From assembly GCF_002854065.1 (NCBI RefSeq), contig NZ_CP024147.1: 64,000 nucleotides of DNA. The stretch is one strand, 5' to 3'. Positions 54,801 to 57,800 of the stretch are shown piece after piece. The DNA comes from Escherichia coli. Lineage in GTDB: Bacteria > Pseudomonadota > Gammaproteobacteria > Enterobacterales > Enterobacteriaceae. Made by a program: the position numbers. Position 1 is the first letter of the stretch, and every line of letters begins with the position of its first letter.

Positions 54801-57800
54801 GCCTCTTTAATAGGATTACATTCCATGAAAAGTAATTTTAAATTGCCAGGTATCGCAGGAATAACCTCAATCTCATTATATTCAATATGCACTTCTTTCA
54901 GATTTTTGGGGAACCATCTAATTTCCTTTATATTATTCTCACTACAATCAAAAAACTTAGCGGTGTCTGGTATTGTTGGTATTTCCGATAGCTTATTGTG
55001 ACAAATAGAAATTATCTTAGCCTTTGGCGGAAATGAGTCAATATGCGATATCAGGTTATTATTTACGGAGATCAGGGTAATTCCATCAGGTACTTGTGGA
55101 AATTCTGTAAGGTTATTGAAATCGACTTCTAATTCTTTGCATGATTCGGGCACATGTATTGAATCAAGTTCATTTTCAATAAGGCTAAGCATTTCAATCC
55201 ACTCGGGAAGAGGCGGTACAGAACCCAAAAATAGGGATGATAAGTCAAGTTCATTATTGTGGAGCTCAACACATTTAAACATTCTCAGCAATGCCCTATC
55301 CACATTTTCTTTGAAGTCATTGGATGCGCCTTCTTTGACTGAACTAGCCCAGTCACTGAAACCTTTGCAAAGTCTGGCATCTGTAATTTTGGTTAACTTG
55401 TCCAGCAACTCTGCAATATTGGTCGATATAAACTCTAATTTATGTCGAATGGGTAAAGTCCCTTCCCCCTGACTTTTTTCTATCGTGATAGACCCCGTCT
55501 TATCATAAGCCCCATAATTTTCAAACAATAGAGTATAATTACCCGGTGATGCTGCCAACTTACTGATTTAGTGTATGATGGTGTTTTTGAGGTGCTCCAG
55601 TGGCTTCTGTTTCTATCAGCTGTCCCTCCTGTTCAGCTACTGACGGGGTGGTGCGTAACGGCAAAAGCACTGCCGGACATCAGCGCTATCTCTGCTCTCA
55701 CTGCCGTAAAACATGGCAACTGCAGTTCACTTACACCGCTTCTCAACCCGGTACGCACCAGAAAATCATTGATATGGCCATGAATGGCGTTGGATGCCGG
55801 GCAACCGCCCGCATTATGGGCGTTGGCCTCAACACGATTTTCCGCCATTTAAAAAACTCAGGCCGCAGTCGGTAACCTCGCGCATACAGCCGGGCAGTGA
55901 CGTCATCGTCTGCGCGGAAATGGACGAACAGTGGGGATACGTCGGGGCTAAATCGCGCCAGCGCTGGCTGTTTTACGCGTATGACAGGCTCCGGAAGACG
56001 GTTGTTGCGCACGTATTCGGTGAACGCACTATGGCGACGCTGGGGCGTCTTATGAGCCTGCTGTCACCCTTTGACGTGGTGATATGGATGACGGATGGCT
56101 GGCCGCTGTATGAATCCCGCCTGAAGGGAAAGCTGCACGTAATCAGCAAGCGATATACGCAGCGAATTGAGCGGCATAACCTGAATCTGAGGCAGCACCT
56201 GGCACGGCTGGGACGGAAGTCGCTGTCGTTCTCAAAATCGGTGGAGCTGCATGACAAAGTCATCGGGCATTATCTGAACATAAAACACTATCAATAAGTT
56301 GGAGTCATTACCTAATTACCCCACCTGAAACATTGCTCTCTCAATAACTTAAATTCTGACAGCATATTCAGTAATTTGCCGTCTTCACTAATTGGTGTAA
56401 ACTTACCATTTCCAAGACAACTGACTAACTCACTTGATAATTCATTTATGATTGCATCATCAGATACTAACTCGTGTTGTTTTATCGTAGATTCAGTATT
56501 AGATGTGACTTTATTTAATTGAACCGACTGAGTTTTTAACGAAAGATCATTTAATGGAAACATTTACACTCCTGTTTAATAAATTATATTGCCCAGGGCG
56601 CATTCTAAAACACAATAAAATTACCACTATCAAAAATCGCTCATATCCATAGCCCGGAATATGAATAAAAACATCAACAAAGATTAAATTATCCAGAGGT
56701 TACTGTTGCGTCTGTGGTCGTAACAACATCCGACGTGGTGATGTGTCAAATGAGACACTCTGATGATCAGAGGGTTTATCGTGTATACGGATCGTGGATG
56801 GCAGAAAACGTTCAGGATCAGGTATCCATTTTAAACCAGATAATGAGTAAGTTTTCCCCATCCATGCCCCACGCGGTGAGATCGGATGTCATTAAAAAAG
56901 TCAGGTCAGCAGGTCAGTATGGGAAGGCGAACAACTCGCAGGAATGGGTGCGCTAAAGTTGCTGGATGATAAACATGGCGAACTGAAATCAATGCGTACC
57001 GTGCCAAATTATTTACGTCATGGTGTCGCCGGTCTGATTTTACGCCACATTTTGCAGGTCGCCCATGACAGATGCCTTAATCGCCTGAGTTTAGAAACGG
57101 GTACACAGGCTGGATTTACGGCCTGCCATCAACTTTCTTTGAAGCATGGTTTCGTTGATTGCGATCCGTTTGCTGATTATCAATTTGATCAACACAATCG
57201 ATTTTTATCATTGACGCTATGCGAAAATAATGAATTGCCATGAGCCAGACGCAGCACATTCTTGCATTCGACGTGCTGCGCCTTTATTTATCACCAGCAG
57301 GAAACGCCTTGTCCATAGACGCCACTTCTACATGCGCCACAAGAAACCTCTATTCCAGTGACACAATTACGCCTAACTATTTAATTCTTACCATCTATTA
57401 CGACCCTTTTGACTATGTCAGAATATTTATCATAATCAGCGGAATTCGTAACAATATATTTTCGCTGCGATATTTCATAGGTAATATCTGTCAAAGCCCA
57501 CGGCATTAAAAACTCCTCTTTAATAGGATAACATTCTATAAAAAGTAACTTTAAATTGCTATGTATCGCAGGGACAACCTCAATATTATACTCGATACGT
57601 GCTTTCTCCAGATGATTTGGGAAGTATTGAATTTCTTTTGTCTTATTATCGCCACAATTAAACAGCTTAGTCATCTCAGGTATTGCTGGTATTTACCATA
57701 TTTTATTGCGATAAATAAAAATTTTCATAGCCTTTGACGGAGATGAGTCAACACGCGATATCAGATTATTATCTACGGAGACCTGGGTAATTCCATCGGA

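Follow-up and report, generated by a model that had tools for sequence, protein, structure and literature searches.

The IS1 element and the gene that it interrupts

The 64-kb stretch of Escherichia coli DNA analysed here, referred to throughout as the window, carries at 55545-56312 a complete copy of the insertion sequence IS1, lodged in an espR3-like gene for a leucine-rich-repeat type III effector. The slippery motif that is the subject of this study lies within this element, near the end of insA. The features of the element and of the interrupted gene are listed below in order of position.

54647-55544, minus strand: C-terminal part of the espR3-like LRR (DUF5503) effector gene, delimited by in-silico excision of the element
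55536-55544, no strand: left copy of the target-site duplication, TAATTACCC, a perfect 9-bp direct repeat
55545-56312, plus strand: complete IS1, 768 bp, with terminal inverted repeats and target duplication
55545-55567, plus strand: left inverted repeat (IRL), GGTGATGCTGCCAACTTACTGAT, 23 nt, pairing with IRR at 18 of 23 positions
55552-55579, plus strand: putative insA promoter, weak and sigma-70-like, CTGCCA-16-TATGAT, scoring 9/12 in a consensus scan
55600-55875, plus strand: insA, GTG start, 91 aa, zinc-ribbon plus HTH, repressor of the IS1 promoter
55848-55857, plus strand: motif TTTAAAAAAC, with the heptamer A_AAA_AAC at 55851-55857, located by exact-string scan and codon phase
55854-56297, plus strand: insB' portion of the transposase gene, translated in the -1 frame once the ribosome has slipped, stop-free
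55600-55854 joined to 55854-56297, plus strand: InsAB', 232 aa, from -1-shift translation
56290-56312, plus strand: right inverted repeat (IRR), ATCAATAAGTTGGAGTCATTACC, pairing with IRL at 18 of 23 positions
56313-56321, no strand: right copy of the target-site duplication, TAATTACCC, a perfect 9-bp direct repeat
56313-56563, minus strand: N-terminal stub of the espR3-like gene, 83 codons, with a stop codon formed by the IS1 junction

Members of the IS1 family are about 768 bp long, have imperfect inverted repeats of about 23 bp that start with GGT(G/A)ATG, and typically duplicate 9 bp of their target. The segment 55545-56312 agrees with the family in its length, its ends, its 9-bp duplication, its overlapping open reading frames, its A6C sequence and its protein domains. 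IRL occurs only once in the window, which therefore contains a single IS1 left end, and this sequence is identical in the IS1 of R100 and in K-12 IS1A, B, C, D, E and I; both ends together match those of R100 IS1 and K-12 IS1A-E exactly. The putative insA promoter lies partly within IRL and agrees in position with the published one, which is described as a weak promoter that overlaps IRL and is repressed by InsA (PMC12428005). This is a textbook IS1, and its biology is already known.

The frameshift site and its products

An exact-string scan found TTTAAAAAAC at 55848-55857 on the plus strand and nowhere else in the 64-kb window. Chance alone would give about 0.33 matches per window, and at least one was present in 26 of 100 shuffled sequences, so that the 10-mer is not significant by itself; it is meaningful because of its context. 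A chance run of A was ruled out by the placement of the motif inside an IS1 that is 100% identical to other copies. Judged from that context, the motif is evidently where programmed -1 frameshifting takes place in a complete IS1, one that belongs to the IS1B/R100 (IS1R) type.

The preliminary description had placed an intact A6C slippery sequence at the end of insA, with insB overlapping in the -1 frame, and the reading frames bear this out. The A6C core at 55851-55857 reads A_AAA_AAC in the phase of insA, the canonical X_XXY_YYZ arrangement, and stands six codons ahead of the insA stop (...CAT TTA AAA AAC TCA GGC CGC AGT CGG TAA). The -1 frame that encodes insB' stays open between 55773 and a stop whose last base is 56297; its overlap with insA covers 55773-55875. 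Mutations in the slippery run and premature stops in insB, either of which would have told against the description, were looked for, and neither is present. When insA is read through TTA AAA and the frame is then set back by one base, as had been advised, the product is 232 aa long with zero stops, and agrees at every residue with the reference InsAB' of the IS1B/R100 type. The position of A6C is constant among IS1 copies, as it occupies IS1 bases 307-313 in all ten of those compared, including the divergent IS1F.

The encoded proteins are well represented in the databases. InsA is identical to INSA2_ECOLX (IS1 InsA), and InsAB' to the RefSeq entry 'IS1-like element IS1B family transposase'. 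The Pfam families PF03811, PF12759 and PF03400 are all matched at full length on the fused product, with Zn_ribbon_InsA at residues 1-36, HTH_Tnp_IS1 at 43-86 and DDE_Tnp_IS1 at 102-232, the last covering profile positions 1-131 of 131. The NCBIfam equivalog NF033558 (transpos_IS1) is matched at 243.8 bits, well above its cut-off of 100. On the basis of the motifs EMDEQW, MTDGW and RIERHN, D109, D166 and E191 are presumed to be the catalytic residues. In exact-sequence look-ups the ...HLKKL... fusion is recorded on 294 contigs under the IS1B family name, and the alternative ...HLKNL... product in a single Klebsiella entry. RefSeq annotation of identical DNA gives a joined coding sequence flagged 'programmed frameshift'.

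In the proposed mechanism, most ribosomes would stop at the end of insA and yield InsA, whose zinc-ribbon and HTH domains would bind the ends of the element and repress the weak promoter in IRL. A few ribosomes would slip back by one base on A_AAA_AAC and go on in the insB' frame, producing the 232-aa InsAB', in which the DNA-binding domains of InsA would be joined to the DDE catalytic domain. The frequency of transposition would then be set by the ratio of InsAB' to InsA. Published work on IS1 describes this arrangement in some detail. Frameshifting at A6C was put at about 2% or less, insB' has no translation of its own, and conversion of A6C into an in-frame fusion raised transposition some 900-1000-fold (PMC12428005, PMC12903888). 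The role of A6C was established by mutation, according to the account given in PMC12428005, where Sekine & Ohtsubo 1989 is cited.

A stimulator of -1 frameshifting would be a hairpin or pseudoknot starting 5-9 nt past the slippery heptamer, or a Shine-Dalgarno-like sequence before it. The predicted fold of the 113 nt at 55848-55960 has an energy of -32 kcal/mol, against -33.7 +/- 3.5 for shuffled sequences (z = +0.49), in a method that does not cover pseudoknots, and no Rfam family matches the slippery run or the region 3' of it. As the fold is no better than that of shuffled sequence and there is no Rfam family, a stimulatory structure is unconfirmed. The bases 5' of the motif show no Shine-Dalgarno-like (GGAG-like) sequence. 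The dnaX gene and the IS3-family elements IS911 and IS150 also undergo -1 frameshifting, on A_AAA_AAG heptamers in X_XXY_YYZ phase. Slippage in IS911 and IS150 joins a DNA-binding ORF to the catalytic ORF that follows it, and in dnaX it ends translation early. Their stimulators are well defined, namely a Shine-Dalgarno-like sequence ahead of the heptamer and a hairpin or pseudoknot beyond it. In contrast to dnaX, IS911 and IS150, for which stimulators are known, the IS1 of the window has none confirmed, and the published efficiency of IS1 frameshifting is correspondingly low. A possible pseudoknot at the IS1 frameshift site has been mentioned without proof (PMC12428005).

Relationship to other IS1 copies

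The window copy shows no differences over 768 bases from many chromosomal and plasmid copies in E. coli, and its InsAB' is identical to theirs. The exact 768-bp variant is found on plasmids of Escherichia, Klebsiella, Enterobacter, Salmonella, Citrobacter and Shigella. The IS1R of R100/NR1, which lies beside catA1 (NC_002134.1, 21225-21992), has the same length and ends and matches at 767 of 768 bases. The one difference is silent and falls at IS1 position 127, which is T in the window and C in R100, so that InsA and InsAB' are identical in the two elements (WP_095033700.1); the context of TTTAAAAAAC is also the same. They differ in location, the R100 copy lying on a plasmid beside catA1 and the window copy in the chromosome, within the espR3-like gene.

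Experimental evolution has provided evidence for transposition of the IS1 of pOXA-48 (bioRxiv 10.1101/2024.03.01.582297). Of the 61.9 kb of pOXA-48a (NC_019154.1), the 50 kb examined contained no IS1. A link of the window variant to the pOXA-48 IS1 was considered and dropped; the candidate, H73, is an IncX3 plasmid.

The IS1 copies of K-12 MG1655 provide a graded series for comparison, for which IS1B, IS1C and IS1D were taken from positions 24164-24931, 35635-36402 and 1779-2546 of the compared loci. IS1B and IS1C match the window copy at 767 of 768 bases, with identical ends and frameshift context, but have A at position 704, which gives Q217 where the window copy, R100, IS1A and IS1D have L217. 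IS1D has three base differences in 768, with H193Y and a change in the 5'-UTR among their effects; H193Y falls two residues past the presumed catalytic Glu of RIERHN. IS1F is more distant, with 74 base differences in 768 and a stop at codon 163 of the fused frame. Neither L217Q (IS1B and IS1C), nor H193Y (IS1D), nor the premature stop (IS1F) is present in the window copy.

IS1A, IS1E and IS1I, described as the 'consensus' active type (PMC12428005), match the window copy at 760 of 768 bases and share its architecture, ends and A6C position. They differ from it in having L81 and S130 where the window copy has F81 and R130, and the base 5' of the motif gives C_TTA_AAA_AAC in these elements and T_TTA_AAA_AAC in the window.

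Three of the eight differences from IS1A fall at 55842-55848 (IS1 bases 298, 301 and 304), 3-9 nt 5' of the A-run; when eight differences are placed at random, clustering this tight arises in only 0.9% of cases. These changes at 298, 301 and 304 convert L81 to F81 and C_UUA_AAA_AAC to U_UUA_AAA_AAC.

Origin of the insertion

When IS1 and one copy of the repeat are removed in silico, an uninterrupted ORF of 379 aa is restored, which shares 92.9% identity with EspR3 as annotated, a type III effector with leucine-rich repeats. The corresponding empty site exists in E. coli CUWW06 (NZ_CP182139.1), in which the espR3-like gene is intact and the flanks found in the window join on a single TAATTACCC. 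This genome, 99.9% identical to the window on both IS1 flanks, was recovered with an IS-free query. Its absence from the best 20 matches of a 6-kb similarity search, which it should have outranked by coverage times identity, is probably an artefact of how the search ranks hits or joins their pieces and not biological. Over about 60 kb of alignment the two sequences differ by 20 substitutions and zero gaps, and IS1 is therefore the only structural difference between them. The empty site in CUWW06, together with the restoration of the gene on excision, indicates a genuine insertion of recent date. Evidently a recent transposition brought the element here, duplicating 9 bp and splitting the espR3-like gene, and in the lineage of the window this paralogue of a type III effector has been knocked out.

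The same junction was found in none of 5,426 complete E. coli genomes. The 83-aa stub that the junction creates was located by exact look-up in the draft assembly GCA_035821435.1 and also in a single contig from a metagenome, and in both the stub adjoins the same IS1 end (75 of 75 and 138 of 138 bases).

Other IS1 insertions were observed in the same gene cluster. E. coli 1332KP (NZ_CM173849.1) carries a second, independent IS1 at the same target (locus positions 3045-3812, corresponding to window 55536-56321). This element is IS1A-like (L81, R130), lies in the opposite orientation and is flanked by an 8-bp duplication, TAATTACC, as against 9 bp in the window. The 1332KP insertion suggests that the espR3-like gene may contain a local hotspot for IS1. 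A third IS1 lies in an LRR/DUF5503 gene of the same cluster in E. coli LD93-1 (NZ_CP047662.1, locus about 3906-4673), at a different position, the N-terminal fragment being 384 bp there and 251 bp in the window; the arrangement in NCTC9967 is reported to be the same as in LD93-1.

Transposition competence

The IS1 copies of K-12 differ greatly in their mobility. In BW25113 more than 99.9% of IS1 transposition comes from IS1A and IS1E, and IS1B, C, D and F combined account for about one event per 10^10 cells, their intact A6C notwithstanding (PMC12428005). As K-12 IS1B, IS1C and IS1D keep both the slippery sequence and open frames and yet barely move, these features are insufficient for activity; an intact A6C is necessary for IS1 activity but is not sufficient. 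The preliminary description had reasoned from the intact motif to a transposition-competent element. The predictions that it made at the sequence level all hold, but the step from motif to competence does not follow by itself, with IS1B, IS1C and IS1D as the counterexample. For annotation this is a caution that a slippery site and open frames alone do not establish that an IS1 is active.

The window copy nevertheless very probably makes InsAB' and would be able to mobilise itself. Autonomous competence is the best reading because the copy has none of the private lesions of K-12, encodes a protein identical to that of R100, is widely spread and was recently inserted. As the one structurally complete IS1 of the window, it could still move, inactivate genes and mediate rearrangements.

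It is unlikely that the copy is instead intact in structure and near-silent, like K-12 IS1B, IS1C and IS1D, and came to its site in trans through the transposase of another IS1, its own transposition being held near zero by the R100-type backbone (F81, R130) or by tight repression through InsA. Its closeness to IS1B and IS1C, which are one base away, share F81 with it and are nearly immobile, is a point against competence. Only IS1A and IS1E transpose detectably in BW25113, L81F in the HTH is a suspected cause of the immobility of IS1B, IS1C and IS1D (PMC12428005), and the window copy has both F81 and R130. Furthermore, the poorly mobile copies of K-12 can be moved in trans at high levels of transposase (PMC12903888), and a recent insertion through the action in trans of another IS1 copy could have occurred here, with donors assessable only within the 64 kb.

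However, IS1B and IS1C (L217Q) and IS1D (H193Y) carry private changes, neither of which is present in the window copy. The protein of the window copy is, moreover, identical to that of the cat-adjacent IS1 of R100, which we take to be the element of Tn9 and of the classic transposition and frameshift experiments of the Ohtsubo laboratory, a role that argues against near-silence. The exact variant also occurs at many different chromosomal sites, and the plasmids that carry it come from at least six genera; a recent insertion at this site by a transposase that prefers to act in cis (PMC12903888) is likewise more in keeping with an autonomous element.

Set against the R100-type backbone, each immobile K-12 copy has a private lesion (L217Q, H193Y or the IS1F stop), which provides an alternative to the explanation by L81F. 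We tentatively propose that the R100/IS1B-type backbone (F81, R130, U_UUA_AAA_AAC) is autonomous and spreading, and that L217Q and H193Y, rather than L81F, may be responsible for the immobility in K-12. Comparison of the window copy with the immobile K-12 copies thereby offers a simple and testable alternative account of their inactivity. A weaker extension of this proposal is that the three-base cluster 5' of the A-run might alter the efficiency of frameshifting between IS1 types.

Homopolymeric runs of A or T give rise to transcriptional slippage in some IS families, but efficient slippage of this kind generally needs runs longer than six A's. Although such slippage is familiar from other elements and sequence alone cannot separate the two routes, it is highly improbable that InsAB' comes mainly from slippage of RNA polymerase on the A-run (giving mRNA one A short or with an extra A) and not from ribosomal frameshifting, as the run is of six A's only, the heptamer has precisely the X_XXY_YYZ phase that tRNA re-pairing predicts, and the literature assigns InsAB' to ribosomal -1 frameshifting at A6C (PMC12428005, PMC12903888).

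Genomic surroundings

The region past the interrupted gene was inspected over window positions 56747-58496. Beyond the gene lies a remnant of the yedL GNAT acetyltransferase gene without its N-terminus (about 56914-57243, plus strand), followed by another espR-like DUF5503 paralogue, which contains an internal stop (about 57381-58496, minus strand). PapRG-06-5 and similar genomes have only an intact yedL and one espR3; by this comparison, the interrupted gene is part of an additional paralogue, by which the beginning of yedL was displaced.

Over its length the window spans torZ/torY and then the flh/che/mot and fli flagellar regions. Rfam identifies the MicL sRNA at 3087-3394 (minus strand), inside cutC, and the C0465 sRNA at 17387-17464 (plus strand), and a cluster of three tRNAs lies at 35691-35989 (minus strand), annotated in CUWW06 as Leu, Cys and Gly. 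MicL, C0465 and the tRNA cluster are ordinary core features of E. coli.
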